From NCBI GenBank assembly GCA_964545075.1, contig CAZJFS010000005.1, forward strand, positions 2,319-66,318: DNA of 64,000 bases, in the 5' to 3' direction. This stretch comes from an uncultured bacterium (GTDB taxonomy: Bacteria; Muiribacteriota; UBA9980). The notes below the pieces were generated by a model. The model saw only the letters and a list, made by a program, of their open reading frames with translations, was not told where the DNA came from and did no database searches. A program made the position numbers and the translations under genes. Numbering within the stretch: position 1 is the stretch's first letter; every line of letters begins with the position of its first letter. Below are positions 670 to 44,564 of this stretch, piece after piece.

Positions 670-1722
670 ATGTTTAACCATTTTATCGCTCTCTCGAAAA
701 TATCTTTCGCAAGAAGAGCCTCGGCCTTCGTCATCATTGTCGGATCGGCCTTCGTTTTCGTCCTGTCTTTCGCTCACACTGCTCACGCGCAGGATACGGC
801 CGGCGTCGCGCTTAACTCCAAAAGCCTTGATTCCGAGCAATTTATGGGTGAAATTACCGCTATAAGAAAAGCCGTCCTTTCCACTAACGTTTCCGGGCGT
901 TTGACCAAAACACCTTATTTTATAGGCGATTACGTTAAATCGGCAACTCCAATGGCCAGCCTTGATACGAGAGACTTCGAAATAGTCGTCAAACAGGCGA
1001 AGGCCGCCGTCGATGCCAGCGCCGCCAGGCTCCGGCAGCTGGAAATCGGGTCCCGGCCGGAAGAAAAAAAACAGGCGGCGGAGCAGCTGCGCCAGGCAGA
1101 GGCGACATCTAAGACGGCGATTTCCGATTATGTAAGAATGAAGGAACTCTTCGCTTCGAATATGATTTCCAAACAAACGATGGAAGCTACGGAAGCGAAG
1201 GCGACCGTGTCAGAAGCCCAATACGCTTCGGTGAAGCTGCAAAAGGCGATTATCGACCAGGGCCCGCGGGTGGAAGAAAAGGAAAACATGCGTGCGCTTA
1301 TAAGGCAACAGGAGGCGTCTCTTGAGCTTGCCATGATCCAGCTGGAATACGCTACGCTGAAGGCCCCGTTCGACGGCATCGTCTCAGCGCGCCATTCGAA
1401 CGAGGGAGCCTTTGTAAACCCGTCGTCACCGATATATACTCTGCAACAAATCGACCCGATATACGCCTCGGTGGACTGCCCTGAAAAATACATGTCCCTG
1501 CTTCAAAAAGGGGTCAGGGCGACGATAATCATAGACGCGCTTCCCGGAAAGAAGTTTTCGGGCGTTCTCGAACGGATGCCGGCCGTCATAGATACCGTAA
1601 CCCGCACGGCAAGAGCCGAATTCACTATAGAGAATCCGGATAAGCTCCTCAGGCCGGGCATGTTCGTCCGCGCCTCGATTTCGTTTGAAGCGAAGATCGG
1701 AGGGGCGAATGAACGTTTCTGA
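670..1722 (+). CDS. RND efflux periplasmic adaptor (membrane fusion protein, HlyD/AcrA family).
   Basis: AAGGAGG RBS is 8 nt before the ATG at 670. An N-terminal signal/TM segment and a coiled-coil middle are present. The C-terminal beta-barrel matches the MFP family. The stop overlaps the start of the RND pump gene. Confidence 0.8.
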   Translation: MFNHFIALSKISFARRASAFVIIVGSAFVFVLSFAHTAHAQDTAGVALNSKSLDSEQFMGEITAIRKAVLSTNVSGRLTKTPYFIGDYVKSATPMASLDTRDFEIVVKQAKAAVDASAARLRQLEIGSRPEEKKQAAEQLRQAEATSKTAISDYVRMKELFASNMISKQTMEATEAKATVSEAQYASVKLQKAIIDQGPRVEEKENMRALIRQQEASLELAMIQLEYATLKAPFDGIVSARHSNEGAFVNPSSPIYTLQQIDPIYASVDCPEKYMSLLQKGVRATIIIDALPGKKFSGVLERMPAVIDTVTRTARAEFTIENPDKLLRPGMFVRASISFEAKIGGANERF

Positions 1723-4700
1723 TATTTTCATCAAGCGGCCGATTTTCACGATCATGTTCACGTCGTTCCTGGTCGTGATAGGGCTGTTTTCATACGCCGG
1801 GCTCGGCGTCGAGCAATTTCCGCAGATAGATTTTCCCATGGCGCGAATCTTCGCGACGCTTCCCGGCGCTAGCGCTGAGGAACTCGAAACTCAGGTAGCC
1901 AAGCCCATCGAGGAAGCGATAAATTCCATTTCCGGCATTAGCCAGATATCTACGACATGCACCTTCGAAACCGTCCAAATAATGGTTCAGTTCAATATGG
2001 AAAAAAGCGCCGACATAGCGGCCCAGGAAGTACGGGAGCGCGTTTCGCAGATACAGGGGAAGTTCCCGAAAGGAATGGCCGCGCCGCAGGTCGGAAAGCT
2101 CGATCCGGGCGCGCAGCCCGTCATAACTTATATCATTTCGGCGGATATGCCGTTGCGCGAGCTTACCTACTTCGCGTGAAAAAAGATCAAGGAACAGCTG
2201 GAAACGTTAAACGGCATAGGTAGCGTCAGGATCGTCGGCGGCCTTGAGCGCGAGATAAGCATCGAGCTGGACGCCGCGAAGATGAATGCTTACAAGATTT
2301 CCCCGGCCCAGGTGAAGGCGGCGATAATAGCTCAAAATTCGGAGGTCCCTGGCGGAAACGTAACCAACGGCGACCGGGAATACGTCTTAAGAACACTCGG
2401 CCGGCTCGAGACGATCGATGAATTTTCGAATATCGTCATTGCCTCGCCGAATAACGTTCCGATAAAGATCTCCGACGTAGGAAAGGTCGTCGACGGTGAG
2501 GAAGAGAAACGGACTTTAGCCCGCCTCGACCAGAAAGCCTGCCTTTCAGTGATCGTGCAAAAACAATCCGGCGTGAACGCGGTCGAAGTGACGGATCTTG
2601 TCAAGCAGCGCCTTGACGAGCTCAGGCCCGCATTTCCCGAAGGAATAAAGATCACGCCCATACGCGACAACTCCAGGTTCGTCAAAAATTCGCTGCATGA
2701 ATTGAATCTTCATCTCGTACTTGGGGCCGTTCTGGCCTCGCTGGCGGTGCTTCTGTTCATGGGGAACGCCGTTTCGACCGTCATAGCGGCGATTTCGATT
2801 CCGATCTCGATAATATCGACGTTCTTCCTCATAAGCTACATGGGCTTCACCATGAACAACATGTCGATGCTTGGGCTGACGCTCGCCGTCGGTATTGTCA
2901 TTGACGATGCCATAGTCGTTCTCGAAAACATCTTCAGACACATGGAAGAAAAAGGCGCTGATTCCATGAAAGCGGCCAGCGATGGCACTTCCGAGATATA
3001 TCTGGCGGTAATGGCGACTTCCCTTTCACTCGCCGTCATATTCATTCCTGTGGCCTTCATGCAGGGCATTATCGGGAGATTTATGAAGCAGTTCGGGCTT
3101 ACCGTCGCCTTTGCCATTTTAATCTCGATAGTGGTTTCGCTGACCCTCACTCCGATGATGTGCTCAAGGCTTTTCAAGTATAAATTCGCCCGGGGATTTG
3201 GCCACAGCAAATCGTCGCGTTTTTATTCCTTTATCGACGGAATTTATGGGACCCTCCTGCATTTTTCAATGAAAAACCGTATGGCCATAGTGATCGTCTC
3301 AATTATATGCGTAGCCGCGATCTTTCCGCTCGTGAAACTCGTCAAGATCGACTTTGTTCCGGCGGACGACACCAACGAATACACAATATTTTTCAGGACG
3401 CCGGAAGGAACGTCGCTCGAAGGGACGGCTAAGATTCTGGTAGAGCTGGAAGACAGGGTAAAAAAAATCCGCGGCATCGAGCATATGTTCTCGTCGATAG
3501 CCGAAAACGAGGGCTCCGGAGTTAATGAAGGCTCCATTTTCATTCAGCTGGTGGACATTTCGAAGAGGGATTATTCCATCTTCAACTCGATGGACGAGGC
3601 TCGGAAAGCCCTGGCTGAATACGGCGGCTATAAGCCCGTCGTTCAGATTTCCGGCGGCATGGGCAGCGGAAAAAACTGGGATGTGACGATGGCCGTCAGA
3701 GGGCCTGACCTTGATAAAATAAGGGAATATTCCGAAAAAATCGTCGAGAAGATAAAAAAAGACCCGATGATCTCGGCGGCCGAATCTTCCGCGCTCGATA
3801 CCAAGCCCGAGATACACGTTAAAATCGACCGCCAGAGGGCCTTCCGCTCGGGGATTGACGTCGAGGCCGTAGCCTACGCTCTTCGAACTCTCATTGGCGG
3901 CGTGGACGACATCAACCAGTTCAAGCAAAACGATGAAATGTATGAAATAAAGATGCGCCTGGGGCATGATTACAGGAATGACGCCTCAGCGATAGCCGGC
4001 CTGACATTTCAAAACCGCGAGGGAAAGATGATTCGCCTCGACACCTTTGCGTCGGTGAAAGAGGGCCGCGGCGCAACCCAGATCGACCGCCAGGACAGGC
4101 AGAGAAGTGTCTCGGTCAACGCCAACATGACTCCGCTCGGCGCCGTCAACGAAGTCAACAAACTAATGGAAAGCGCCGCCCGCGAGCTTAAAATGCCGCC
4201 CGAATATGCCTTCGGGTTCTTCGGCAGGTCGCGCGACATGAACCAGACGATAAACGGCTTCATCATGGCGTTTTTAATGAGCGCGATCTTCATGTACCTG
4301 ATTCTCGCGTCTCAATTCGAAAGCCTCCTGCATCCCGTCACCATAATGCTCTCGTTGCCGCTTTCCATACCTTTCGCCCTGCTTTCGCTGTACGTTACCG
4401 GGAATTCTCTCAATATTTTCTCCGCTCTGGGCGTTTTCATGCTCTTCGGAATCGTCAAGAAAAATTCAATTCTGCAGATCGATTATACCAACACGCTGCG
4501 CGAGTCCGGAATGCCCCGCGAGGAGGCCATTATTGCGGCGAATCACGCCAGGCTCAGGCCCATACTCATGACGACCGTCACTCTCATCGCCGGGATGATA
4601 CCGATGGCTATGGGGACCGGCGCCGGCTCCGGAACCCGCGCGTCTCTGGCGATAGTCATAATAGGCGGCCAGACGCTGTGCCTTTTAATCACGCTCCTTC

Positions 4701-4780
4701 TGACGCCGGTGGCCTACAGCCTTTTCGACGACCTTCTTGAATGGATAAAATTGAGAACGCCTAAGCTCGAAGAAGAATAA
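1709..4780 (+). CDS. RND (HAE1/AcrB family) inner-membrane efflux transporter, interrupted by one in-frame TGA at 2177-2179.
   Basis: The N-terminus MNVSDIFIKRPIF is typical of AcrB. ORFs 1685..2179 and 2282..4780 are in the same frame. The intervening 2180-2281 translates to AcrB-like sequence (KKIKEQLETLNGIGSVRIVGG). The length is that of a 12-TM RND protein. Confidence 0.75.
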
Positions 4781-5457: not shown

Positions 5458-6708
5458 TTATTTAGCGGTTTTACCGGCCTGCGTTTTTTTAACCGTTATT
5501 GTTCTGTCGAAAGCGGCATTAACAGTTCCTTCTTTTTTTACGTTATCCTTATCTATCATAAATATATCGATCGTATGACCGTTATTTATTTCAAATTTTT
5601 CGCCGATTTTGATCTTCAAAATATAATTTTTGCCGCAATATTTTTTTATTATAAAATCTTCGTCACCGGTAAAATCAGAATTATCACTGTCGAATAACGT
5701 GAAGTTTTTGTATGCAGCGTTCATATCGTAATTGAACCATTTTCCATCTTTTTTGGAATAGCAGCTATAACTAAGCCAGTTCGCACGGCCACCCTTTTCT
5801 TTTAATATTATCTCGTTTTTTTCATCATTATCGATATCCGCCATAAATGCGGTTCCTTTGAGATCGGGGCTGAGATACCGGTATGTTTCGATTGATTCGG
5901 CGTCCCCGCAAATGGGGACGTCAAAGCTTAAATCGCTTATAATTTCTCCTGCATCCTTTATGACGGCATCGATTATTTTAGAAGCTTTATCGGCGCTCGT
6001 CCTTAATTTGTCGTAGTTTATTTCCATGGTATAAAGCGATTTGAATTCGCCGTTTTCACAGCAGTATATTTCGATCTTTCTGACCGGCTCGCCTTCTTTC
6101 TTTAAGGTATAAACTTTGTTTTCACAGCGGACGAATGATAAGGATTCCCCGCCGCCGTCAGGTGCGCAAAGGTCGTTTTTCACTATCAAGTACTTTCCGT
6201 TTTTTTGCTTTTTGAAGAAATAATTATCTTCGACATATAAAGTCCCCTGGACGGAGTGGAACCGTATCTCGTTGACGCCATCGTTATCGATATCGATAAG
6301 AGAAGTGAAATAGCGGTTTCTTGAATTGACGATCGTTTTTTTCAGATCCGTATCGTATTCAAGTTTTACTTTTTCAGGATCGATTCCGGCATTTCTTAAA
6401 TACATCGTCTGATTGAGATACAAACCGCGGTCTTCGCCTTCGAAAGTCACATCTTTTTCAGCATTTAACGGTTCCATTTCGAGAGATTTCTCGTTTTTTT
6501 CATAGAGCAATTTCGCGAGAAGTTTAACTACGGGCTCTTTTATAAACTTATCGGGTCGTGAAAGCGAGATGCTCGTTTTTTCATGGTCGTTGCCGTTTAA
6601 GTAATATAACTGAAAATCATTTTGGGCCGATGAAATTCCCGATCCATGAAATAAGGTGATAAAAGCGCAGGAAATAATAGATAATGAAAATTTAATAATT
6701 TTATTCAT
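5458..6708 (-). CDS. Secreted hypothetical protein with DxDxDG-type, calcium-binding-like loops.
   Basis: The N-terminal signal peptide is MNKIIKFSLSIISCAFITLF. Repeated DIDNDGVNEI / DIDNDEKNEI motifs occur. No family was recognised. Confidence 0.5.
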   Translation of the reverse strand: MNKIIKFSLSIISCAFITLFHGSGISSAQNDFQLYYLNGNDHEKTSISLSRPDKFIKEPVVKLLAKLLYEKNEKSLEMEPLNAEKDVTFEGEDRGLYLNQTMYLRNAGIDPEKVKLEYDTDLKKTIVNSRNRYFTSLIDIDNDGVNEIRFHSVQGTLYVEDNYFFKKQKNGKYLIVKNDLCAPDGGGESLSFVRCENKVYTLKKEGEPVRKIEIYCCENGEFKSLYTMEINYDKLRTSADKASKIIDAVIKDAGEIISDLSFDVPICGDAESIETYRYLSPDLKGTAFMADIDNDEKNEIILKEKGGRANWLSYSCYSKKDGKWFNYDMNAAYKNFTLFDSDNSDFTGDEDFIIKKYCGKNYILKIKIGEKFEINNGHTIDIFMIDKDNVKKEGTVNAAFDRTITVKKTQAGKTAK

Positions 6709-6765: not shown

Positions 6766-6978
6766 TTAAAGCATTGCGAGTATTTCCGGCTCTTCGGGGA
6801 AGCGCCCGGTTTTCTTTTTGCTGAATATTAGCTTTCCGTCCGCGGTGATCTCAAAAACTCCGCCCCGGGATTTAATAAGCTTAACGGTTAAATTTTTCTT
6901 TTTTTCAATTTCTTCGGCAAGACTTGCCGCATAAGGATAGTAGTTTCACTCGCCGCAGTATTCGATGGAAATATTCAT
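6766..6978 (-). CDS. selW: SelW/Rdx-family selenoprotein with a CxxU motif. TGA at 6946-6948 encodes selenocysteine.
   Basis: Hand translation gives MNISIEYCGE-U-NYYPYAASLAEEIEKKKNLTVKLIKSRGGVFEITADGKLIFSKKKTGRFPEEPEILAML. This carries the IEYC..U redox motif and the GGVFEV..DG.L.FSK..GRFPE signature of SelW-like proteins. A GGAGG RBS sits 6 nt before the ATG. A stem-loop lies about 17 nt 3' of the UGA (plus-strand 6915-6929). Confidence 0.8.
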
Positions 6979-7112
6979 TTGTCGCCTCCATGGTAAAGTG
7001 CTTTTAACAAATTATATCAACGACCGACGATTTTGTCAACAATCAAGCAACCATAATGAAATTAAAATATTGAGCCGAATGATATTAGAAACCTCATTCG
7101 CCAAAGCTTTTG

Positions 7113-16820: not shown

Positions 16821-16957
16821 ATGAAAATTCGCTCCAAAGTTTTAAAGCCCGCATGCGCATAAAATGATCAGGGCGCATGCCGGGGGTGTCTAAATTAAAA
16901 TGGTTAATATATAATTCGTCAAAATAATCGCTTAATTTAAACTTTTTATGTCCGATT

Positions 16958-17356
16958 TTATCCGGCGATGACTTTTACATAAAATTCGCGTGTTCTCGGG
17001 CCATCGAATTCGCAAAAATATATTCCCTGCCATGTTCCTAAAAGCATTTCTTTCTCGTCGACGATAATCGTCAATGACGGTGAAAAAAGTGACGATTTGA
17101 TGTGCGCGGCTGAATTTCCCTCGCCATGAGAGTAATTTGCGTTAAATGGAATGGCGCTATTAATGAACCCGGTTATGTCGTTCATGACGTCGGGGTCGGC
17201 GTTCTCGTTTATTGTTATTGCGGCCGTCGTATGCGGAACGAAGACTGTCAATATGCCATTTGCGATGCCGCTTTCAGAGAGCGCTCGTTCGATATGGCTT
17301 GTGACGTTTATAAATTCAACGCGCCGTGATGTCCTTATTGAAAACGTTTTAAGCAT
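16958..17356 (-). CDS. yjbQ: YjbQ/UPF0047 family protein (secondary thiamine-phosphate synthase-like).
   Basis: The VTSHI..., GILTVFVPHTTAAITINE and GHSAAHIKSSL motifs are present. Confidence 0.7.
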   Translation of the reverse strand: MLKTFSIRTSRRVEFINVTSHIERALSESGIANGILTVFVPHTTAAITINENADPDVMNDITGFINSAIPFNANYSHGEGNSAAHIKSSLFSPSLTIIVDEKEMLLGTWQGIYFCEFDGPRTREFYVKVIAG

Positions 17357-17563
17357 TTTAACCTCGGTGATCTGTAGTTGATGGAGTTTAGAGTGGAAAA
17401 AAGCCGGTATAAATCAATAAGTGGAGAGTCGAGAACGGAGAACTTCGGTAGCGCCGCGTTGCGCCTTTTTAGAGCCGGCAAAGCCGGCTTTAATTAACTC
17501 TCAACTCTCCGTTTTATACTCTCCACTGTTTTTAGCGTTATATTATCAACTCTTAACTAATTA

Positions 17564-18904
17564 TTAGAATCTTTCCCACAATTTTTTTGAAAGCTTCAAA
17601 GTTTCGGCGGCGACCTTTTCTTCGTCGATGTCGAGTTTGAGCTTTTTATTTTGCATGAGGACTTTTCCCGACGCTATTGTCGTATCTACGGTCGAATTAC
17701 CTATGCCGAAGCAGAGATGGCCGAAGAAATTCGTTTCATCGAAAGGCGTCCATGGGAAATAGTCGACGAGTATTACGTCGGCGGCGAATCCTTCTTTTAA
17801 GATGCCCACGCCCGAATCGCCGAAATGGCGGTTGGCTATTTTCGCGTTGTTTATCGCGAGCGTGGATAATACTTCCATGAAGCCCGAGCCGGGGTTTTTA
17901 TCGGCCAGGTGGCGTATCCACATTGCGGCGCGAAGCTCCTCGAGCATATTTACCGTCATAGCGTCGGTACCAAGTCCGACCGTAATGCCTTTTTTAGCCA
18001 TAGCGGGAAGATTGGCCACGCCGACGGCGTTATTCATATTTGATTGAGGATTATGAACGACCGCGGTGTTGGTCTCGGCCAGAAGGTCCATTTCTTTGGG
18101 GTTGATATGGACGCAGTGAGCGCATATCGTTTTGGGGCCGAGTATGCCGAACGAGTTCAGTCTGTTCACGACTCTTTTTTTGAAGTTTTTAACGTTATAA
18201 GCCTGGTCCGATTCGGCTTCCGCCGTGTGGACGTGGAATCCGGTCTTTAAGCCTGATGCTGCCTCTACGGCTTTTTCCATCGTTTTATCTTTTATCGTAA
18301 ACGATGCGTGAAGGCCAAAAAGCGCCTTTATCTGTGGATCTTTTTCCTTGTTGCATTTTTTTATGAAGTTCGCGTTCTCGGCGATGCCTTCATCGGATAT
18401 CTTCTGGCCGTCGCGGTCTGAAAGTTCGTAGCAAAGCGACGCGCGGAGTCCGACTTTTTTAACGGCTTTGGCTATCGTTTCAAGCGAGCCTGTTATCGCG
18501 AAAGGGCTTGCGTGGTGGTCGATGAACGTCGTCGTGCCTTTTTTTACGGCCGTGATCAGCGGCATAAGCGTGCTATAATATGTGTCTTCGAGGGTGAGCT
18601 TCTTATCGAGCCTCCACCATAAATTTTTCAATACCTGATTGAAATCTTTTGAGGGAGCGGCTTTTCCAAGTCCGCAAACCTGCGTCGAATAGAAATGCAT
18701 ATGGGCGTTTATGAATCCGGGCATTACGACCTTGCCGTGAGCGTCGATGACCTGATCGTATTTTCCCTTAAAGGTTTTATCCGGGGCGATCTTTTTTATT
18801 TTATCGCCTTCGATTAAAAGCGAGTGGCCGGTGAGGACCTTGTTTTTTTCGCCCATCGTTACTATGGTTCCATTTTTTATCAATATTGTAGATACTTTTG
18901 ACAT
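17564..18904 (-). CDS. Amidohydrolase of the chlorohydrolase/SsnA-like subfamily.
   Basis: The metal-binding PGFINAHMHF motif and HxH/HxD residues are present. The size is 446 aa. It is next to a DPD/YgfK-like flavoprotein, as in the E. coli ygfK-ssnA pair. Confidence 0.65.
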   Translation of the reverse strand: MSKVSTILIKNGTIVTMGEKNKVLTGHSLLIEGDKIKKIAPDKTFKGKYDQVIDAHGKVVMPGFINAHMHFYSTQVCGLGKAAPSKDFNQVLKNLWWRLDKKLTLEDTYYSTLMPLITAVKKGTTTFIDHHASPFAITGSLETIAKAVKKVGLRASLCYELSDRDGQKISDEGIAENANFIKKCNKEKDPQIKALFGLHASFTIKDKTMEKAVEAASGLKTGFHVHTAEAESDQAYNVKNFKKRVVNRLNSFGILGPKTICAHCVHINPKEMDLLAETNTAVVHNPQSNMNNAVGVANLPAMAKKGITVGLGTDAMTVNMLEELRAAMWIRHLADKNPGSGFMEVLSTLAINNAKIANRHFGDSGVGILKEGFAADVILVDYFPWTPFDETNFFGHLCFGIGNSTVDTTIASGKVLMQNKKLKLDIDEEKVAAETLKLSKKLWERF

Positions 18905-19034
18905 TTGATTATATTCCTCCAGTTTGATATTTTTGCCGAGTAAAAAAATTGTCTTGCTGATATATTTTACCGGAAGAATAACGGATGTCGAACATTCGAT
19001 TTTACTATTATTCTTCCGGATGGTTCATGAATTA

Positions 19035-21542
19035 TTAGTCTTCCTTGAGCATTGCAAGTTCTTTTTTCGTGCGATCTCTCATCGTTATCGCGCCGCTGAA
19101 GCATTTTTGAGAGCATATGCTGCATCCTATGCACTTTTCCGGATCCGTGACCGGATAGCCGTCTTTATCTTGCGTGATGGCCATATACGGGCAGCGGGTG
19201 CAGTTTCCGCATTTGAGGCACGTATCGTGATCGCTGCATGATATTTTCTTGGTGGGCGTCAATGACATGAAATCGGTTACGGGGTTTGGAAGAGCGGCGC
19301 CTACGAGATCTTTTACGGATTTGATTCCGCGTTCGAGCATGAGGTGCGAAAGGCCCGACGCGAGTTCTTTATAAACGCCCACGCCGTGTTTCATGGCTAT
19401 CGTGCAGAACTGTACCGTCTTCGCGCCCAGAGCGAGGAAATGGGCCGCCGCTTTATAGTTCATCGGTCCGCCGTTTCCGGAGACCGTGATGCCGAGTTTC
19501 GAGACGTTCGCGAGCGAAAGGTTCGATATAGGAGTCACTCCTTCGCCGCTCATGCCGACGACTATGGCTTCTTCCCAGTTCTTTTTGTTTCCTTTCCTGA
19601 ACATGAGGGTCGGGAACGTGTTGGCGAGCGTTACGCCCGCGGCTTTTTTCGGATATTTATCGAGGACTTTTTTGATCGCCATCATTATCGGATGAAGAGA
19701 CGTTACGGCTGCCGTGAGTTTAAAGAGTTTCGGTATCTTCGGGTTTGAAATTTCCATTATCCAGTCGATTATTTTAGCCGTGAGCGCAGCGTTCTGAGAT
19801 ACTATGTCGCCTTCGGTTCCGTCGCCGCCCTGCGGGCAGGAAAGGCTGTATTCGATGCCCATTACGCCGGCATCTTCGAGCTTTTTAGTGTTCGACTGCC
19901 AGCCGGCTTTGTCGCTCTTGTCGTTTCCCGTGACCGGTCCGCCCGTCGAAGCCATGGTGAGCTTGGTCGGGTATTCTTTGACGAGGCGTTTGATTTCCTT
20001 GCATACCCTTGAAAGCGAGTGGCCCGATACGTTGTCGCAGTTGGCGTACGTGTTCGGGGTTACCGCGAACATGTATTGCGAAGGAATGTGTATCTGCACG
20101 CCGTCGAAGGAGGTTTTCATTATGCCGCCGGCCCAGCCAGCTTCATAAGCTTTTACCATCTGATCGTATCCGTCCGAGGGCGGAGCCGCCGAGAGGATGA
20201 ACGGCGATTCGATTTTTCTGCCGAAAAAGTCGTATTCGAGAGAGACGGGAAGCGGGTTCCAGCCGGGAAGCCCGACGCGGCTCTTAACCATTTTTTCGAT
20301 CTTCGTTATTTTTTTGCCGCTTAAATATTCGTCCATCTGAATGGCGGTGTTTTTGCCGGCGGCTACCGCTTCGACGACGGTCGTCGGGCCGTTAACGCAG
20401 TCGCCCGCGTAGAATATTTTCGGATTTTCAATTTTATTAAGACCCGATCGGTTTCCGATGGCCATGATGACCTGATCGAAATACATTCTGTCCTGGTCGG
20501 TGCCTTTTATTTCTTCGATGTCCTTCAGGCTGAATTTTTTGCCGTTCAATTTAACTTTAGCGGTTATAATGCCCGTGACTTTTTTTCCTTTTACGGTGAT
20601 CTCTTTAATTTTTATTCTGCCGTTAACGTCAACTCCGCTGTGAGCGAGCTCAAGAAGCTCTTTCTGCGTGAGAGGCATTTCGCTTAACGTTTCAAGCGCG
20701 TACATTTCGACCATTTTCGCGCCGTTATTTTTCGCGGTTACCGCGCAATCCCAGGCTACGGCTCCGCCGCCTATTATGGCTACGTTGCCCTTGCACGCGA
20801 ATTTTTTCGGGTCCATGAGGTATTCGAGAGAGTAAACGGCCGCTTCCTCGCCTTTTACTCCGAGTTTGATGGGATTCCAGAGGCCGGTCGCCACGCATAC
20901 GGCGTCGAATTTTTTAAGAAGGTCATCGGGTTTTTCGATGTATTTATTTTTAACGACTTCGATATCGCCGCATTTTAACAAAAATTCGATATCGCTTTTC
21001 AATATTTTCTTGTCGAGACGGTATTCGGGAATCGTGTTGCAGGCTCCGCCGGTTAAATTTTCCGCTTCGAATACGGTGACTTTATATCCTTTCTGAGCCA
21101 GCATAGCGGCCGTTCCGAGTCCAGCCGGGCCGGCGCCTACGACGGCGACTTTTTTGCCGTTCGATTTTGCTTTTTTGAATGTGGGCATAACTTTAAGCTT
21201 TTTTGCCCTTTCGATCACGGTTGCCTGAAGCGACGGGATCTCTATGGCTTTATCGAATCCGAGGTGTACGCATTTAGCCATGCAGTGCTTATCCGGACAT
21301 ACCGCGCCGCAAATTCCGCCGAGCGGGTTGAAGCTCATTATTTCGCCGGCTGCGCGCATAAAATCCTTGTCGGATTTAAGCCTTGCGGCCATTATGAAAT
21401 CGGCGGGCGAACAATCTGCGGGGCAACCTTGTTTGCAGGGCTTATCCTCGCAGTATTCGCAGCGTAAAAATTCGGCCTCAAGCTGTGCGTCGGTAAGATG
21501 GGGATTGTTTGTGTACATAGAACAAATACTCCTTAACTTCAT
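19035..21542 (-). CDS. Dihydropyrimidine-dehydrogenase-like Fe-S flavoprotein (fused PreT/PreA or YgfK-like architecture).
   Basis: N-terminal Fe-S Cys clusters are followed by FAD (VAVVGAGPAGL) and NADPH (VAIIGGGAVA) folds. A DHOD-like FMN barrel follows. The C-terminus has 2x 4Fe-4S motifs (CLKCGNCTRCP and CIGCSICSQKC). Confidence 0.75.
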   Translation of the reverse strand: MKLRSICSMYTNNPHLTDAQLEAEFLRCEYCEDKPCKQGCPADCSPADFIMAARLKSDKDFMRAAGEIMSFNPLGGICGAVCPDKHCMAKCVHLGFDKAIEIPSLQATVIERAKKLKVMPTFKKAKSNGKKVAVVGAGPAGLGTAAMLAQKGYKVTVFEAENLTGGACNTIPEYRLDKKILKSDIEFLLKCGDIEVVKNKYIEKPDDLLKKFDAVCVATGLWNPIKLGVKGEEAAVYSLEYLMDPKKFACKGNVAIIGGGAVAWDCAVTAKNNGAKMVEMYALETLSEMPLTQKELLELAHSGVDVNGRIKIKEITVKGKKVTGIITAKVKLNGKKFSLKDIEEIKGTDQDRMYFDQVIMAIGNRSGLNKIENPKIFYAGDCVNGPTTVVEAVAAGKNTAIQMDEYLSGKKITKIEKMVKSRVGLPGWNPLPVSLEYDFFGRKIESPFILSAAPPSDGYDQMVKAYEAGWAGGIMKTSFDGVQIHIPSQYMFAVTPNTYANCDNVSGHSLSRVCKEIKRLVKEYPTKLTMASTGGPVTGNDKSDKAGWQSNTKKLEDAGVMGIEYSLSCPQGGDGTEGDIVSQNAALTAKIIDWIMEISNPKIPKLFKLTAAVTSLHPIMMAIKKVLDKYPKKAAGVTLANTFPTLMFRKGNKKNWEEAIVVGMSGEGVTPISNLSLANVSKLGITVSGNGGPMNYKAAAHFLALGAKTVQFCTIAMKHGVGVYKELASGLSHLMLERGIKSVKDLVGAALPNPVTDFMSLTPTKKISCSDHDTCLKCGNCTRCPYMAITQDKDGYPVTDPEKCIGCSICSQKCFSGAITMRDRTKKELAMLKED

Positions 21543-32719: not shown

Positions 32720-32734
32720 TTTTAAACCGTCTTT

Positions 32735-33178
32735 CTATTTGTTTTTCGTGCGGCATGTTCGGCAGACGCCGTAGAGCTCCATCCGATGTCTTGATATTTC
32801 AAATCCATTTTCCGAAGCGACTTTTTCCTGGAGTTTTTCGAGTTTTTCGGAGTAGAATTCGACTATCTTTCCGCATTTTTCGCAGAGGAGATGATCGTGG
32901 TGGCCTTCGGCGGTTCCAGCCTTTTGTAGTTGATAATAGGACTTGTTATCCTGCAGCTTCATTTTGCTTATCAGGCGAGTCTTCTCCAGAAAGACTATGT
33001 TCCGGAAGACGGTGGCGCCTGAAACCGCCGGATTATTGGCGCGCGCCTCGGCGAGGATCTGTTCGAGGTTGATGTGCTCGCGTGAATGCCTCAAAAGAAC
33101 GTCGATGATGACGCTTCGCTGAGCGGTCATTTTAAGGCCCGATGTTTTGAAATGGAGAGTTATATAGCTTTTATTCAT
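32735..33178 (-). CDS. fur: Fur-family metalloregulator.
   Basis: The HHDHLLC and CGKIVEF...C metal-binding motifs are present. It is 147 aa and sits immediately upstream of feoB. Confidence 0.8.
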   Translation of the reverse strand: MNKSYITLHFKTSGLKMTAQRSVIIDVLLRHSREHINLEQILAEARANNPAVSGATVFRNIVFLEKTRLISKMKLQDNKSYYQLQKAGTAEGHHDHLLCEKCGKIVEFYSEKLEKLQEKVASENGFEISRHRMELYGVCRTCRTKNK

Positions 33179-33187
33179 GTCGCCCGC

Positions 33188-33220
33188 CTTTGTAAATGAA
33201 AGTCATTTTCATTTACAAAG
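33188..33220. promoter_or_regulatory. Fur-box-like perfect palindrome CTTTGTAAATGAAA-gtcat-TTTCATTTACAAAG.
   Basis: A 14-bp perfect inverted repeat lies immediately upstream of fur. The core AATGAAAgtcaTTTCATT resembles the Fur box AATGATAATCATTATC. Confidence 0.6.
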
Positions 33221-33313
33221 TTATTTTAACATGGAGCGGTTGGAATGTCAACATGAATTTTCAGACACGTGATTTTTCGGAAACATTTTAATCGGGCTGC
33301 GGTTTTATAAGTT

Positions 33314-37169: not shown

Positions 37170-38561
37170 TTATTTTTCCTTGGGAAATATTCTTTCCAGC
37201 TCTTTTTTATGATATTGCTTCATTTCATCATAACTCGACATTCCATCGAGGAAATTGCGTTTCATCGGAAAATAGCGTGGATTGAAATGCGTCATATAAA
37301 TATGAAAGACCATCGTGCCGATAAAAGCGAGGATGGCTTCGAATCCATGGATGGCTCTGGCGATATCGATCGCGATAATCGGCGTGAAAGGCAATATCGC
37401 CTCATGATACCACATGATGGAACCGGTCGCTATCATAAGAGTGCATCCCCAGCAAGCGGCAAAATAGTCGAATTTTTCAAGGTATGTGTATCTGTCGAAG
37501 TTAAAATTCCCTGGCCGGCCCCGAAATAGCGATATCCAGTCTTCGATGCCGTCGTAAAGATCGTCCGGATTTGGTATAAAGTGTTTTATTTCAAAGCGGC
37601 CGTTGCGCGTGAAAACGATAAAAAGAATATGCCATGCGCAGAATATTATCAGGCCGGATGCGGCGATTTTATGAATTATGACGTTCGCCGGAAAGCTTAT
37701 AAGATTTTTAAAGTAGAATTCTGAAATGAAAAAATTGCTGAACATCTGCGCCAGGCCGGTTATGGAAAGAGTTATGGAGGAAGTCAGCAGCAGAATATGC
37801 TGGCATCTAAAATTTTTGCTCCATCGGAGGAATTTGACTTTATGCCGTAAATGCTTTGGAATGGTTTTGTCGTATTCGGGGAATTTTTCCGGCCGCATCG
37901 TATCGACGATCATTTCCTGATCCGGGCCCGCCTCCTCTCGTTCTGACGTTTCCGGCGTTATCGTTTCGGTTTTTTTATTTTTTCTTTCGAATCTTTTGGC
38001 ATTATACCATCTGTTGACGTCCAGAACTATATAAAACATGAACATTATGGACGTCAATATGATAGCGGCTATGAAGAAGCGCGCTACCCACATTGTTATC
38101 CAACGCCCGCGTTTTTTTTCGAGGTTTTTATGATGAAAGACTGTTTTCCATTCCGTGAACCCGGCGTTATGATGTTTTTCGCCGGGTTTATGATCGTCAT
38201 ATACGTGACATGGCAGGCAATCTATTTTTTTTATTTCTTCCGGTTTGTGAGGAAAACCGGTAATGGCCTTATGACACTCAACGCATTTAAGCTTGCCGCC
38301 ATGGACGGGATTGGCCAGAGTGCTTTTATCTATACAAACGCCCTTCGGTTCGGCTGATCCGCCGCCTGCCTTGAGGTTGGTATTGCCATGGCACGAAACG
38401 CATTGCGGCGCCTCTTGATTTTGATCCGCCGCGGTGGCATAACTTGGAAGCGTGACCGCCGATATGTAAACGCAGGTAGCTAATATCGCTAATATTGAAT
38501 ATTTTCCACTCTTGAAAATGTATCCCGGATCGTAAGTAAAAGTCTGTTTCATTTCATCCAA
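37170..38561 (-). CDS. Membrane cytochrome: an N-terminal tri-haem c-type domain fused to a cytochrome b-type transmembrane domain.
   Basis: Three CxxCH motifs are present (CVSCH, CVECH, CLPCH). These are followed by multiple TM helices with conserved His residues. Confidence 0.6.
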   Translation of the reverse strand: MDEMKQTFTYDPGYIFKSGKYSILAILATCVYISAVTLPSYATAADQNQEAPQCVSCHGNTNLKAGGGSAEPKGVCIDKSTLANPVHGGKLKCVECHKAITGFPHKPEEIKKIDCLPCHVYDDHKPGEKHHNAGFTEWKTVFHHKNLEKKRGRWITMWVARFFIAAIILTSIMFMFYIVLDVNRWYNAKRFERKNKKTETITPETSEREEAGPDQEMIVDTMRPEKFPEYDKTIPKHLRHKVKFLRWSKNFRCQHILLLTSSITLSITGLAQMFSNFFISEFYFKNLISFPANVIIHKIAASGLIIFCAWHILFIVFTRNGRFEIKHFIPNPDDLYDGIEDWISLFRGRPGNFNFDRYTYLEKFDYFAACWGCTLMIATGSIMWYHEAILPFTPIIAIDIARAIHGFEAILAFIGTMVFHIYMTHFNPRYFPMKRNFLDGMSSYDEMKQYHKKELERIFPKEK

Positions 38562-39793
38562 TCGTATTCATACAACTGATTATCGGCTTTCAATTTTTTT
38601 AACGTATCTGAAGTCATTCCGATCTCGGCGTCGGACAGGTAGCAGGCCGGGTCCGGGGCCCAGGTATCGTTAAAGATCGCTTCCGCTCTGACCCTGAAAT
38701 TACCGTTACAAATATTCAAATATTTGCATATTTTACAGCGGCCCTTGAGGTGCGGCTTTCTATTTTTAAGCCTTCCCATTAGTTCGTCGGATAAGTCGGG
38801 CCATATTTTAGAAAACGGCCTTTTTCGGATATTGCCGAATGAATAATGGCGCCAGAACTGGTCGGCATGAACTTCGCCGTGCTGGTCGACGCAGGAGATG
38901 GCTATGCCGGAGTTATTTCCGCCGTTATATTGCAGAAGCGTGAGTATTTCGGCCGCTCTTTCCGGATTTCTTTCAAGCATTTTCAGATAAAGCAAGACGC
39001 CGTCAACATGGTTATCGACTGTCAGCACTTCGATCGCATGGCCTTCATCATAAAGTTTTTGAGTCCGTTCAAATATGTATTCTACGGTTTTCCTGGATTG
39101 TGGCAGAGGCACTTCCTCGCTTAAAAGATCGGTTCCGCGTCCGGCGTAAACCAGATGATAAAAGCATACTCTTGGAATGCTTCGGTCTTTAAGCGTATCG
39201 AAAATAAAGGGAATTTCTTTATAGTTGCTTTTATTTATCGTGAAGCGCAGGCCGACTTTGATGCCTTTATCCATGCAATTTTCAATTCCCGCCATAGCCA
39301 TATCGAAAGCCCCTGGAACGCCGCGGAAGCGATCGTTGGTTTCAGCTATTCCGTCGAGCGAAATTCCGACGTAAGAAAAGCCGGCATCTTTTATTTTTTG
39401 GGCAGCATCTTCGTTTATAAGAGTTCCGTTGGTTGAGATCACCGCGCGTATATTCTTCGAGCGGGCGTAATCGCCGAGTTCGAAAAGGTCTTTTCTCATG
39501 AGCGGCTCGCCGCCGGAAAAAAGAAGCGTAGGAACGCCGAATCCGGCCAGATCGTCTATCATGGCCCTTGCTTCCGCTGTTGAAAGCTCGTCTTTGGCCG
39601 GTTCACATTTGGCGTTAGCGTAGCAATGAACGCAGAAAAGGTTGCATTCCGACGTTGAGTTCCATACCACGATGGGTTTTTTGTCCTTTGAAAATTGCAG
39701 CATATTCGACGGCAGCTTTGCTGAATGCCTTCCGTATCTCTGGACGTCGTGCGGAGAAACGAGACCGCATAGTAATTTGGATACGCCTATCAT
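38549..39793 (-). CDS. Radical SAM / SPASM-domain protein of the NirJ/AhbC/AhbD family.
   Basis: The CNLFCVHCY radical SAM cluster motif is present. A C-terminal Cys-rich SPASM region (CKICKYLNIC) is present. Confidence 0.7.
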   Translation of the reverse strand: MIGVSKLLCGLVSPHDVQRYGRHSAKLPSNMLQFSKDKKPIVVWNSTSECNLFCVHCYANAKCEPAKDELSTAEARAMIDDLAGFGVPTLLFSGGEPLMRKDLFELGDYARSKNIRAVISTNGTLINEDAAQKIKDAGFSYVGISLDGIAETNDRFRGVPGAFDMAMAGIENCMDKGIKVGLRFTINKSNYKEIPFIFDTLKDRSIPRVCFYHLVYAGRGTDLLSEEVPLPQSRKTVEYIFERTQKLYDEGHAIEVLTVDNHVDGVLLYLKMLERNPERAAEILTLLQYNGGNNSGIAISCVDQHGEVHADQFWRHYSFGNIRKRPFSKIWPDLSDELMGRLKNRKPHLKGRCKICKYLNICNGNFRVRAEAIFNDTWAPDPACYLSDAEIGMTSDTLKKLKADNQLYEYDWMK

Positions 39794-39889
39794 TTAAAAT
39801 TCTGCCTTCCATGTTAAAGTGTGGAAATTATAACAAAAATTCGATAATCTGTAAATATAAATATAAGCATGGCGTTGGATAAAAATGAA

Positions 39890-39918
39890 TTGACTTTAAA
39901 TCATGTTCTTGATATTAT
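39890..39918 (+). promoter_or_regulatory. Sigma70-type promoter TTGACT, 17 nt, TATTAT upstream of ahbA.
   Basis: The hexamers are read directly, about 75 nt before the ahbA ATG. Confidence 0.45.
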
Positions 39919-39992
39919 TATAAAACAAAAGAAACTTAAGCGATTTTGTCGGGTTTTGAAAGTCGCGTTAAACCCTTTAAAATGAGTGTCGT

Positions 39993-40457
39993 ATGGAAAA
40001 AGAACTGAACGAGTTGGAAAAAAAAATATTAAATCTTATTCAAAAAGATTTTCCCGTCAGCGCAAGGCCATTCGTTAAAATTGCCGAAAAATTAGGCGGC
40101 TTGAGCGAGGAATGCGTCATGGAGTCTCTTCGATCTCTCAATGAAAATGGTTATTTAAGACGCCTTGGACCGATATTTAATTCCGACCGTCTCGGCTACG
40201 TAAGTACGTTAGCCGCTATAGCGGTGAGCGGGGATGAAATTGAAAAAGCCGGTGAAATAATTAATTCTTATATGGAAGTTACTCATAATTACCTGCGCTC
40301 CGATGAAAAATTTAATATGTGGTTTACTTTAACGGCTCATTCCGGAGACCGCCTTTTAAAAATAATCGATGAAATAAAAGAAAGGACGGGCGTGAGTGAA
40401 GTGCTCAATCTTCCGGTCGTAAAAAAATTTAAAATAAAAGTCGAATTTAACGTATGA
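39993..40457 (+). CDS. ahbA: Sirohaem decarboxylase subunit (AsnC/Lrp-like NirD/NirL family, AhbA/B).
   Basis: An HTH_AsnC-like N-terminus with the NirD/L/G/H fold is present. It is paired with a paralog downstream. Confidence 0.65.
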   Translation: MEKELNELEKKILNLIQKDFPVSARPFVKIAEKLGGLSEECVMESLRSLNENGYLRRLGPIFNSDRLGYVSTLAAIAVSGDEIEKAGEIINSYMEVTHNYLRSDEKFNMWFTLTAHSGDRLLKIIDEIKERTGVSEVLNLPVVKKFKIKVEFNV

Positions 40458-40945
40458 TTACATCTGAAAAATTGAAGAAATTAATAAATATGCTTTCGCG
40501 CGGGATTGAAGTAACCCGGAGCCCTTTTTTGAAGATGGCCGAAACACTCGGCGTTTCAGAAGAAGAGGTAGTGGAAGCGGTCCGCGTGATGATGGAAGAA
40601 AAAAAGATCCGCCGTTTCGCGGCAGTTCTGAAACAGTCAAAGATAGGATATTCGGCGAATGCGATGTGCGTTTTCAACATTTCGACCGAAAAAATCGAAT
40701 TCGCAGGCGAATTCGCGTCTTCTTTAAAGGCGGTTAGTCATTGTTACGAAAGGGCGGGAACGCCTTCGTGGAATTATAATCTTTACGCTATGGTGCACGC
40801 TAAATCGAAGCCGGAATGTGAAAAAATCGCCGAAACTATAGCGGCCAAAACTTGCGCCCTCTCTTATAAGGTGCTCTTCAGCGTCCGGGAATTGAAAAAA
40901 CAGAACGCGGTTTATTTCGGCGATAAAGAATTTAATGGAGTTTAA
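40454..40945 (+). CDS. ahbB: Sirohaem decarboxylase subunit (AhbA/B paralog).
   Basis: It is a paralog of the preceding gene with 4-nt overlap. Confidence 0.65.
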   Translation: MITSEKLKKLINMLSRGIEVTRSPFLKMAETLGVSEEEVVEAVRVMMEEKKIRRFAAVLKQSKIGYSANAMCVFNISTEKIEFAGEFASSLKAVSHCYERAGTPSWNYNLYAMVHAKSKPECEKIAETIAAKTCALSYKVLFSVRELKKQNAVYFGDKEFNGV

Positions 40946-42055
40946 ATGAACATTGGTGCATGTCAAAACGATAACGCGCCGTCTCATGGCGGTTTAAATA
41001 CCGGCAAATGCCCGCGCCTTATAGCATGGGAACTCACTTCGGCGTGTAATTTAAAATGCGTTCATTGCAGGGCTTGCGCGCCGTCGGAGCGGCCCGCCGG
41101 CGAACTTTCACTTGACCAATGCCGCGTGTTTTTAAACGACGTGGCCGCTATGGAAGGCAAGCCGATATTGATTCTCACGGGCGGCGAGCCATTGATACAT
41201 CCAGATTTTTTTAAGATACTCGAACACGCTTATTCGTTGAAGATGCATACCGTGCTTGCTACGAACGGGACCCTCATAAACGATGATAACGCAGCGCGCA
41301 TGTATTCGCTTGGCGTTTCCCGCGCGAGCGTGAGTATAGACGGGCATGACGCTTCCGGGCATGACGATTTCAGAAAGGTTTCCGGCGCTTTCGAGAGCGC
41401 GCTCAAAGGCGTAAAGACCATGCAAAAAGCCGGGATACAGATCCAGATGAATACGACCATAACAAGGCGCAATATATCCGACATAGAAAAAATATTCGAA
41501 CTTGGCGTTTCACTGCGCGCGGTCGCTATACACATATTTCTTCTCGTTCCGACGGGAAGGGCCGCGAACATGATTGGCGACGAGATATCGCCCGGAGAAT
41601 ACGAAAGCGTTTTGAACTGGTTCTATGACAAGAAAAAAGATACGGCTGGCCGCATCAATTTAAAGGCGACATGCGCTCCTCATTATTACAGGATAATGCG
41701 CCAGCGCGCGAAAGCCGACGGCGTCGCGGTCGATTTTCAAACTTTCGGGCCCGACGCGGTAAGCCGTGGCTGTCTCGCCGGATGCGGGTTCGCGTTCGTA
41801 TCGTCGACCGGCATAGTCCAGGGCTGCGGCTATATGCCGGTTCCGGCCGGAAATATCCGCGAAACGCCTTTTTCAACGATATACAAAGACTCGGAATTTT
41901 TCAACCGCCTGCGCGATCTTTCGAACCTTAAAGGAAAATGCGGCAAATGCGAATACCGGGCCGTTTGCGGAGGCTGTCGCGCCCGCGCCCTGGCGGCTTC
42001 AGGCGATTGTTTTGAAGAGGAGCCCTACTGCAACCATGTTCCCGCTAAAAAATAA
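40946..42055 (+). CDS. Radical SAM / SPASM protein (AhbC/AhbD-type; Fe-coproporphyrin or haem synthase).
   Basis: The CNLKCVHCR motif is present. C-terminal SPASM cysteines (CGKCEYRAVCGGC) are present. It is in an operon with ahbAB. Confidence 0.7.
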   Translation: MNIGACQNDNAPSHGGLNTGKCPRLIAWELTSACNLKCVHCRACAPSERPAGELSLDQCRVFLNDVAAMEGKPILILTGGEPLIHPDFFKILEHAYSLKMHTVLATNGTLINDDNAARMYSLGVSRASVSIDGHDASGHDDFRKVSGAFESALKGVKTMQKAGIQIQMNTTITRRNISDIEKIFELGVSLRAVAIHIFLLVPTGRAANMIGDEISPGEYESVLNWFYDKKKDTAGRINLKATCAPHYYRIMRQRAKADGVAVDFQTFGPDAVSRGCLAGCGFAFVSSTGIVQGCGYMPVPAGNIRETPFSTIYKDSEFFNRLRDLSNLKGKCGKCEYRAVCGGCRARALAASGDCFEEEPYCNHVPAKK

Positions 42056-43556
42056 TGCTTTTATAAAGTTTTTTAGTTCCATAACCACGGCGATAACATT
42101 ACTTTTTATAATCGCGCTTTCGTCGGTTGCCGGCACGCTTATTCAGCAGAACCAGGAATTCATTTTCTACAAAAAGAATTTTCCGCAATATTATGGCTGG
42201 ATATATTTTTTTTCACTCGATGATCTTTATCATTCGGCATGGTTCGTCGCCCTGATCGTCCTGTTATGCGTAAACATAATCGTTTGCACGTTAAGACGTT
42301 TCAACTCCAGGCTTCAGGCGGCCCAAACCGTCGATTTTGACATAACCGCGGATTTTATAGCAACTTGCCGCTTCAAAAAAAGCATCGAAAAAGTTTCGAA
42401 TGAATCGGCCGCCGCGGTCATATCCGCTAAAATAAAAGAATTCGGGTACGCGCTTTACGTTAAGGAAACGGACGGCCGCGCCTGTTTTTTTGGAAATTGC
42501 GGCGCTTACTCTTTTCTGGGTGAATTCACGGTTCACGCAAGCCTGCTTATGATAATCGCCGGCGCGCTCATCGGGAATATTTACGGATATAAAACGCAGA
42601 TGGCGGGGGTTCCCGGAGACGTCCGGCCGGTTCCGACGAAGGCTTATTTAGACCTTCAGAACAGGATCGGCGAGACATTTGAAAAGGCGCGGGCTCAAGG
42701 GCGCGACAGCCACGATGAGATAGGAAAACTTATGGCGCGGCAGATGGCGCTTCCTGAAAAGTCTTTTTTTGACGTGCGCATAGATGATTTCAAAACAGTG
42801 TATGCCGAAGGTGGATTGACTGCGGAAGCGCGCGTGAAGAACTGGTACACGACTTTATCAGTCCTGTCCGGAACGACGCCTGTTTATACGAAGACGCTTT
42901 CGGTTAACGATCCAATGAGCTATGACGGGGTCAACATTTATCAGTCTTCATTCGGAGCCGTCACGTGCGGTTATAAAAATTTCAGAATACGGTATCTGGA
43001 AAAAGGCGCCGGCGCTTCTGAAACCTCATTCGTCATAAATGACGCTGAAAATTCGAGTGAGGTGCGCTTTAAAGGTTATAAGATAAGGGCATTGAAATTT
43101 TTGCCTGATTTTAAGATCGATATCGATACAAAACAGGCCTATTCCGCGTCCGATGAGCCGGGAAATCCGGCTTTAAAACTTGAAATAAGCCGGGATGGAA
43201 CCGGAGAGGTTAAGACGCAATGGCTTTTTAAAAATATTCCTGATTTTTCGCATGAAGGCGCGAGTGATGGAGAATTCTCCGGCCGGTTCATTTTCGATGG
43301 TTTTGAAGCGGTTGAAAAACAATATACCGGTCTTCAGATCGCCTATGATCCTGGCGTCTATCTGGTGTGGGCTGGTTTCGCGTTTATGACGGCTGGCTTT
43401 TTCTGGGCTTTTTATATTTTCCATAAAAGGGTCTGGTGCGTCTTCGATAAAAGCGGATGCCGGATTCATCTGGGCGGTTCGGCCGATAAGAACCATGTCC
43501 TTTTCGAAGAGGAATTCAATGAATTTTGTTCTGAAATCGAATCAGAGGTGAAGTGA
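42012..43556 (+). CDS. resB: Cytochrome c biogenesis protein ResB/Ccs1 (System II).
   Basis: An N-terminal TM helix, a large soluble domain and C-terminal TM helices are present. It lies directly upstream of ccsA. Confidence 0.65.
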   Translation: MKRSPTATMFPLKNNAFIKFFSSITTAITLLFIIALSSVAGTLIQQNQEFIFYKKNFPQYYGWIYFFSLDDLYHSAWFVALIVLLCVNIIVCTLRRFNSRLQAAQTVDFDITADFIATCRFKKSIEKVSNESAAAVISAKIKEFGYALYVKETDGRACFFGNCGAYSFLGEFTVHASLLMIIAGALIGNIYGYKTQMAGVPGDVRPVPTKAYLDLQNRIGETFEKARAQGRDSHDEIGKLMARQMALPEKSFFDVRIDDFKTVYAEGGLTAEARVKNWYTTLSVLSGTTPVYTKTLSVNDPMSYDGVNIYQSSFGAVTCGYKNFRIRYLEKGAGASETSFVINDAENSSEVRFKGYKIRALKFLPDFKIDIDTKQAYSASDEPGNPALKLEISRDGTGEVKTQWLFKNIPDFSHEGASDGEFSGRFIFDGFEAVEKQYTGLQIAYDPGVYLVWAGFAFMTAGFFWAFYIFHKRVWCVFDKSGCRIHLGGSADKNHVLFEEEFNEFCSEIESEVK

Positions 43557-43559
43557 TAA

Positions 43560-44561
43560 ATGATGGATGATATTGGCTTTACTATAGCTTTTTTTTCTTA
43601 CATGGCCGGCGCTCTGGCTTATACATATTTTCTTTTTTGGAAACGGTCCCAGCCCGGCCATGCCGCGACTGGCGTATTATGGTTAGGCGCCATTGCTCAT
43701 GCTTTTGCGATTGGCGATCGTATGCTGGCGGCGGGGTACATGCCGATGTCGAACATGTTCGAGTCGCTTTCGGTTTTTTCGTGGCTTATAGCGCTGTCTT
43801 ATTTCGCAGTTGAATATAAATATAAGACGAAATCTCTCGGGCCTTTCGTCATGAGCATATCGTTTACAATGATAGCCATAGCCTCCGTCCTTCCGCGCGA
43901 CATTAAACCGCTTGTTCCGGCTCTTCAAAGTTACTGGCTTGGCCTTCATGTCGCCGTAACGTTTATCGGCGAGGCCGCGTTCGCGGTTTCATACGTTGCC
44001 GCGCTGTTATATATCATGAAGCCGGCGCGCGACGGCGAAAAGTCCTCGGCGTTTTCCAATGTTTTCTCCGCATCCAACGCCGGGGCGTTTCTCGGCGTAA
44101 TATCGTTTTTTATTATAGCGCTTCTGAAAAAAAGATCGGTCATATTTCCGGAGAACTATCCGGCTTTTTATATTCCGCTTGCAGTCGCGACCGTATGTTC
44201 GATCGTTTTTTACCGGATGAGAAATATTATAGTTTCGGTTCTTCCTTCAGGCGAGATATTAGACGATATCAGCTATCGCTCGGTCAGTATAGGGCTGCCC
44301 GTTTTTACGCTTGGCGGGCTGGTTTTCGGGGCTATATGGGCTCACAGGGCGTGGGGGACATACTGGTCGTGGGACCCGAAGGAAACCTGGGCGCTTATTA
44401 CGTGGTTCATATATGCGATATATCTTCATATGCGCCATCATTCCAACTGGCGGGGAATGAAAGCGGCGTATATCACTTCGCTGGGTTTCATCTCGACGCT
44501 GTTCACTTATTTTGGCGTTAATTATCTTCTTTCCGGGTTACATTCATATGGAAGGTTTTGA
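43560..44561 (+). CDS. ccsA: Cytochrome c-type biogenesis protein CcsA/ResC.
   Basis: The WGTYWSWDPKETWALITW tryptophan-rich haem-handling motif is present. Confidence 0.85.
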   Translation: MMDDIGFTIAFFSYMAGALAYTYFLFWKRSQPGHAATGVLWLGAIAHAFAIGDRMLAAGYMPMSNMFESLSVFSWLIALSYFAVEYKYKTKSLGPFVMSISFTMIAIASVLPRDIKPLVPALQSYWLGLHVAVTFIGEAAFAVSYVAALLYIMKPARDGEKSSAFSNVFSASNAGAFLGVISFFIIALLKKRSVIFPENYPAFYIPLAVATVCSIVFYRMRNIIVSVLPSGEILDDISYRSVSIGLPVFTLGGLVFGAIWAHRAWGTYWSWDPKETWALITWFIYAIYLHMRHHSNWRGMKAAYITSLGFISTLFTYFGVNYLLSGLHSYGRF

Positions 44562-44564
44562 TTT

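Follow-up and report, generated by a model that had tools for sequence, protein, structure and literature searches.

The minus strand at positions 6766 to 6978 of the 64-kb stretch of DNA analysed here (the window) carries, with a probability that we put at about 0.93, a genuine gene for a SelW-like selenoprotein, equipped with a functional SECIS hairpin. The gene is a previously unannotated member of a bacterial selenoprotein family that was described about twenty years ago.

Results and discussion

The coding sequence runs on the minus strand from an ATG at 6978–6976 to a TAA at 6768–6766 and comprises 70 codons; codon 11 is an in-frame UGA (6946–6948, minus strand), which we read as selenocysteine. 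Translation of 6978–6766 gives MNISIEYCGE*NYYPYAASLAEEIEKKKNLTVKLIKSRGGVFEITADGKLIFSKKKTGRFPEEPEILAML*, and translated through the TGA the product is a protein of 70 residues, MNISIEYCGEU followed by the residues after the first asterisk. A sequence-only reading of this DNA had proposed a 70-residue translation across the TGA at 6946–6948 and this was reproduced exactly, with correct coordinates. It had also stated that the gene is missing from the list of open reading frames, and no minus-strand ORF of at least 40 residues is indeed listed in the interval; the SelW-like signatures it pointed out were both found, as IEYCxxU and GGVFEI..DGKLIFSKK..GRFPE. The redox motif, C8-G-E-U11, lies near the N-terminus. 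Its resolving cysteine, Cys-8 (TGC, 6955–6957, minus strand), is kept in all 80 homologs examined and aligns with the first Cys of the CxxC motif in 2fa8 and 3dex. Residues 39 to 44, GGVFEI (6847–6864, minus strand), correspond to the Rdx consensus signature tGxFEI(V) (PMC10650576), and GGVFE is invariant in our homolog alignment A1. The gene is uncalled in the public assemblies that carry the locus, and in the closest metagenome relative it was called merely as a 41-residue C-terminal fragment. The nearest genome record shows 87% protein identity and about 82% DNA identity; the nearest relatives are labelled Calditrichaceae, KSB1, Zixiibacteriota, Deltaproteobacteria and others.

For the profile searches, C was put in place of U. 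The protein matches the Pfam family Rdx (PF10262) with E = 5.6e-20 and 71.8 bits against a cutoff of 22.6, over residues 2 to 68 and spanning the TGA. It also matches TIGR02174 (CXXU_selWTH) with 62 bits against a cutoff of 34.2. The NCBIfam equivalog NF041051, "SelT/SelW/SelH family (seleno)protein", is matched with 93.5 bits against a cutoff of 88, a small margin, and both this match and that to TIGR02174 extend over the full length of the protein. The short name of NF041051, SelTWH_Campy, points to Campylobacter-type members, whereas the nearest relatives of this gene are labelled otherwise (Calditrichaceae, KSB1 etc.). The Rdx/SelW identity claimed from the letters is borne out by all three profiles, each of them above its cutoff.

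A sequence search of the PDB returned 2fa8, 3dex, 2obk, 2oka, 2p0g and 2ojl, together with MIEN1 and mouse SelW (2npb), and the CxxC of the PDB matches aligns on the CxxU of the window protein. The fold was modelled with AF2 on a stored homolog, P0001, which is 68% identical to the window protein. The resulting model (pLDDT 95.9) has the order strand, CxxU loop, helix, three strands, helix, with the redox motif between the strand of residues 5–10 and the helix of residues 16–30. A structural search with this model gave 2fa8 as the top PDB match (TM 0.90), then SelW, MIEN1 and thioredoxins. A thioredoxin-like fold for the window protein itself would follow from sequence homology, the model being that of its 68%-identical homolog. 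The cysteine-containing Rdx structures (2fa8, which is Atu0228, 2obk, 2oka, 2p0g, 2ojl and 3dex) superimpose on the P0001 model with TM 0.83–0.91, and the position of the redox motif, GGxFE and the subsequent strands all align; they differ in having CxxC, in being about 25–35 residues longer and in sharing 21–29% identity. Mammalian SelW (2npb) and MIEN1 (2ljk) likewise belong to the Rdx family and share the CxxU motif and thioredoxin-like fold (PMC10650576), but the similarity is weaker (E = 0.0043, TM 0.68), and mammalian SelW uses a 3′-UTR SECIS of other architecture in place of the coding-region hairpin seen here. The exact function of the Rdx family is still described as unknown (PMC10650576).

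The possibility, raised with the original proposal, of a read error in a gene whose orthologs carry Cys was examined against other assemblies and against homologs. Two separate metagenome assemblies, L083 (ENA ERZ27257449) and L084 (JGI 3300010352), contain the identical TGA and hairpin with no gene called, and in both the product of the neighbouring 452-residue gene is identical. A homolog scan restricted to one genome per species found 221 relatives, of which 80, from many phyla, were kept. The codon at the Sec position is TGA in 78 of these and TGC in the other two (L032 and L079); the scan used one search pattern with Cys back-translated and tblastn penalises stops, so that the sampling is biased, if at all, against TGA forms. 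The DNA of the relatives L001 and L002 also has TGA at this codon. Four database homologs (P0001, P0002, P0004 and P0005) have W at the Sec position in their stored sequences (CxxW), the gene caller having translated TGA as Trp; in the DNA of L001 the codon is TGA. We note that in such Trp-for-Sec entries the contigs were short and the caller had changed over to a code with TGA=Trp. We also note an extra base in L083, at about 1920–1935 (window about 6898–6912), in an A-rich run just after the hairpin (ATTAAAAAAAAAG versus ATTGAAAAAAAG). The extra base would frameshift the selenoprotein gene, and probably reflects either strain variation or an assembly error in the homopolymer.

A hairpin that we assign as a bacterial SECIS lies within the coding sequence at 6915–6929 (minus strand, codons A17–E22). 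It has a six-base-pair stem, CGGCAA/UUGCCG, closed by a three-nucleotide apical loop, GUC, at 6923–6921. The location of the stem-loop had been given correctly in the sequence-only reading (6929–6915, beginning at the 17th nucleotide past the UGA), but not its geometry: a seven-nucleotide arm with a two-nucleotide loop had been drawn, whereas the G placed in that stem is the conserved unpaired G of the loop. The published bSECIS model calls for an apical loop of 3–9 nt on an upper stem of 4–16 bp, a G at loop position 1 or 2, usually with G or U after it, a UGA-to-loop distance of 16–37 nt and a minimum free energy no higher than −7.5 kcal/mol (PMC13188914). The window hairpin, with a loop of 3 nt, a stem of 6 bp, the loop G in place and 22 nt between UGA and loop, falls within every one of these limits, and the claim of bacterial SECIS spacing is upheld. 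Its energy taken alone is borderline, at −7.5 kcal/mol exactly on the threshold; the hairpins of the homologs average −9.2 kcal/mol and 78% of them reach the threshold. The loops in the 78 TGA homologs are GUU (36), GUC (28), GGU (8), GGC (4) and GAC (2), so the loop G is invariant and the next base is U or G in 76 of the 78.

When the window sequence was folded by itself the hairpin was no better than in shuffled sequence (z −0.38), and the case for it therefore rests on comparative evidence. No alternative structure was predicted in the 60 nt after the UGA. Rfam gave no family at gathering thresholds in the whole window and, near the gene, just a chance match at E ≤ 10. The reference for such elements is the SECIS of Escherichia coli fdhF, a coding-region hairpin immediately 3′ of the UGA that exposes a loop G-U at a fixed distance. 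The hairpin described here resembles it in its position 3′ of the UGA within the coding region and in the G-U of the apical loop. It differs in its shorter stem (6 bp), its 3-nt loop and the lack of an evident bulged U, and its loop GU lies at positions 26–27 (counting the U of the UGA as 1) against 23–24 in fdhF, that is 3 nt or one codon further away.

The comparative evidence comes from a gapless alignment, A2, of 78 distinct sequences that runs from the UGA to position +39; the spacing from UGA to loop shows no indels in these 78 aligned sequences. Base pairing is possible in 87.5% of the paired cells of A2, against 76.9% in shuffles (a value of 87.5% was reached in 0 of 500, although the shuffles ignore phylogeny and such counts are not true probabilities) and against 21–50% when the pairing partners are slid. 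The covariation score is 0.347, compared with 0.141 for shuffles and 0.034–0.111 for slid partners. Double changes occur in four of the seven hairpin pairs. RNAalifold applied to A2 independently predicts the five inner pairs, 21–33 to 25–29. The outermost and most telling of these, 21–33, joins the third positions of the Ala-17 and Ala-21 codons, both of which are synonymous sites; it forms in 76 of the 78 sequences, where 46.8 would be expected, and is found as CG (41), UA (16), GC (9), UG (7), AU (2), GU (1) and unpaired (2). In the two Cys-form homologs the hairpins have decayed, to −4.0 and −2.9 kcal/mol, and one has no GU loop. The slid-partner control and the Cys forms point the same way as the shuffles.

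Three other explanations have to be weighed against a selenocysteine codon with its own SECIS. The TGA might be an error of sequencing or assembly in a CxxC Rdx gene, or might have arisen there by a recent nonsense mutation, leaving an ordinary gene or a pseudogene. Such a reading could appeal to the existence of Cys forms (L032 and L079 with TGC, and CxxC in all solved bacterial structures), to the 1-nt indel that L083 carries in an A-run of this very gene, and to a further unexplained in-frame TGA in the window, in an RND permease. It is effectively refuted, and we hold it to be extremely improbable: the TGA is identical in the window, L083 and L084 and recurs in 78 of 80 homologs and in L001 and L002, and a covarying hairpin accompanies the TGA forms and is missing in the Cys forms. 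A code in which the organism reads TGA as Trp or Gly (tables 4 or 25), the assumption made by the gene caller for P0001, P0002, P0004 and P0005, is barely credible. The four database homologs with W and the two in-frame TGAs of the window could be quoted for it, yet TGA terminates 11 of the 44 long ORFs in the window, from which the standard code follows, and long ORFs are intact under table 11. The position concerned is, moreover, that of the catalytic Cys/Sec of the family motif, a SECIS would be superfluous under such a code and is nevertheless conserved, and a scan for further read-through ORFs found none.

It might also be argued that the gene is a selenoprotein gene but that the hairpin is a by-product of the conserved peptide A-A-S-L-A, with the real recoding signal elsewhere or of a different kind. 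GCN GCN AGU YUG GCN is a self-complementary sequence, homologs keep the peptide in forms such as AASLAE and AASLAA, the short hairpin does no better than shuffles in a single-sequence fold, and a recent review notes that some bacterial selenoprotein genes deviate from the consensus SECIS model (PMC13188914). We nonetheless consider this explanation very unlikely. Third positions that the peptide leaves free covary: where both codons are Ala, pair 21–33 is formed in 60 of 62 sequences against 33.7 expected, a figure reached in 0 of 20000 shuffles (once more a count and not a true probability). In A-S-S-L-K variants the helix is retained through a G-C to U-A double change that alters amino acids. 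The loop G is invariant, with U or G after it in 76 of 78; in both Cys homologs either the stem or the GU loop is gone although a similar peptide is kept, and the 60 nt past the UGA offer no alternative predicted structure.

Bacterial SelW-like selenoproteins, the subject of work by Zhang and Gladyshev, have been known since the mid-2000s. With 48 genes and a CXXU motif they ranked first in abundance among the selenoprotein families of the Sargasso Sea data, and they occur in Geobacter, Desulfotalea, Alkaliphilus, Symbiobacterium and others, with few Cys homologs (PMC1088965, PMC1794560). Like the gene described here, those described encode stand-alone proteins of about 70–80 residues with an N-terminal CXXU, mostly in the Sec form, and they have a hairpin with a small, G-containing loop directly after an in-frame UGA (PMC1088965, PMC1794560). 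They too are routinely missed or truncated by gene callers. There is no difference of kind between them and the present gene, which is a copy from an uncultured lineage.

Upstream of the gene a putative sigma-70 promoter can be read on the minus strand (7011–7039), with TTGACA at 7039–7034, a 17-nt spacer and a TG-extended TATAAT at 7016–7011. The prediction, by consensus match alone, has 12 of 12 consensus positions and the TG before the −10 hexamer; the TTGACA-17-TATAAT arrangement is also readable in L002. The GGAGG ribosome-binding site that had been claimed 6 nt upstream of the ATG was read at 6989–6985 (minus strand), and is likewise present in L002.

L002 and L003, the nearest relatives, have about 81–82% DNA identity to the window. 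They are collinear with it from 16864 to the end of the selenoprotein gene and resume at a convergent DUF2148 gene (5441–4827). Between the selenoprotein gene and DUF2148 the window has a 416-residue ORF (5458–6708, minus strand), whose N-terminus resembles a signal peptide and for which neither Pfam nor NCBIfam gave a match. This ORF is absent from L002 and L003, in which the convergent DUF2148 gene comes straight after the Rdx gene; the collinearity skips 5458–6708, and the 416-residue gene is therefore confined to the window in that comparison. On these alignments it is a lineage-specific insertion or deletion.

Across 82 related loci there is no broadly conserved neighbour: no family occurs in more than 14 of the 82, and the largest neighbour cluster is an artefact produced by an antisense ORF. 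A TrxR-like flavoprotein, DUF58, peptidase M29, an ABC ATPase and dehydrogenases were considered as clues to function and set aside as lineage-level neighbours. In 12 of the 82 loci, mostly from Calditrichaceae, a 352-residue Pyr_redox_2 protein is encoded convergently just downstream of the SelW-like gene. One example, in L008 (11400–12455, minus strand), is a pyridine nucleotide-disulphide oxidoreductase of thioredoxin-reductase size. The adjacency is a weak hint at best of a possible reductase partner, and may be synteny within one lineage only. We think it unlikely that bacterial SelW-like proteins are the dedicated substrate of a TrxR-like flavoprotein, in a relay from NAD(P)H through the flavoprotein to CxxU. 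Were there such a relay, the partner of the window protein would be encoded elsewhere, and it would be the first defined biochemical partner of the SelW-like family in bacteria.

The following mechanism is proposed for the gene. Transcription would probably start from the consensus sigma-70 promoter and translation from the ATG behind GGAGG. The ribosome would reach the UGA at codon 11, with the hairpin 16 nt beyond it (6-bp stem, GUC loop) acting as a bacterial SECIS. By the established bacterial pathway, SelB with GTP and Sec-tRNA(Sec) would bind the hairpin loop, and Sec would be inserted in place of termination; the sel genes would lie elsewhere in the genome. The product would adopt a thioredoxin-like fold in which Cys8-x-x-Sec11 sits between the first strand and the first helix, and may be a small redox protein that cycles between Cys8-SH/Sec11-SeH and the selenenylsulfide.

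The window also contains the selenium-associated catabolic genes that had been claimed for it, since SsnA (17564–18904, minus strand; 517.9 against an NCBIfam cutoff of 455.5), YgeW (52120–53310, plus strand; 659 against 500) and YgeY (53382–55049, plus strand; 565.7 against 321.5) all exceed their cutoffs. A carbamate-kinase-like gene (55097–56035, plus strand) follows YgeY. These selenium-linked catabolic genes form two sets, at 17564–21542 (minus strand) and 52120–56035 (plus strand). The ssnA, ygeW and ygeY genes lie 10–46 kb from the selenoprotein gene and therefore provide circumstantial support only. SsnA, YgeW and YgeY are tied to selenium through the labile selenium cofactor pathway and not through Sec, and they suggest that selD is present in the genome. 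We note that the YgeY ORF has 555 residues, of which the model spans residues 5–402, some 150 C-terminal residues being without a family. An 835-residue neighbour of SsnA was tried as YgfK and rejected (148.8 against a cutoff of 835.3); it looks like a fusion of a GltD-like NAD(P)-binding domain and a PreA-like dihydropyrimidine-dehydrogenase domain.

We infer that the organism decodes UGA as Sec, and put it no more firmly than that because selA, selB, selD and tRNA-Sec are all absent from the 64 kb of the window, which holds no tRNA of any kind. No tRNA-Sec was found in the flanks of the 60 relatives scanned. A search of the window for a second selenoprotein, using TGA-joined ORF pairs and intergenic read-through ORFs, gave nothing credible.

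The RND efflux permease gene already mentioned (1685–4780, plus strand) has a single in-frame TGA at 2177–2179 (TTC GCG TGA AAA). Its two halves share a frame and match positions 1–154 and 191–1008 of an NCBIfam model. No SECIS-like hairpin follows this TGA (z −0.08), and the one independent contig found begins downstream of it; a nonsense mutation, a pseudogene or an error of assembly is the probable explanation. Elsewhere, the stretch 38549–45905 holds a cluster for the siroheme-dependent alternative heme pathway and cytochrome c maturation, comprising an AhbC-like radical SAM protein on the minus strand and AhbA, AhbB, AhbD, ResB, CcsB and HemA on the plus strand. Clusters of this kind are typical of anaerobes. 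Two gaps, 16821–17563 (about 740 nt) and 32720–33313 (about 590 nt), contain no ORF of at least 150 residues, no convincing read-through ORF and no Rfam match at gathering thresholds.

Conclusions

The gene leaves the understanding of selenoprotein function unchanged. Its chief value is better annotation, in that the gene is uncalled, truncated to 41 residues or stored with Trp for Sec. The Trp-for-Sec entries are a systematic artefact that hides selenoproteins, and one that can be searched for deliberately. The 78-sequence alignment is a clean case of synonymous codon positions carrying an RNA signal. It describes a family-specific SECIS across many phyla, defined by a stem of 6 bp, a G-U/G-Y triloop and a constant spacing of 22 nt, and could seed a covariance model for automatic gene finding. 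The lineage itself is probably a selenocysteine user, which fits the ssnA, ygeW and ygeY genes nearby.
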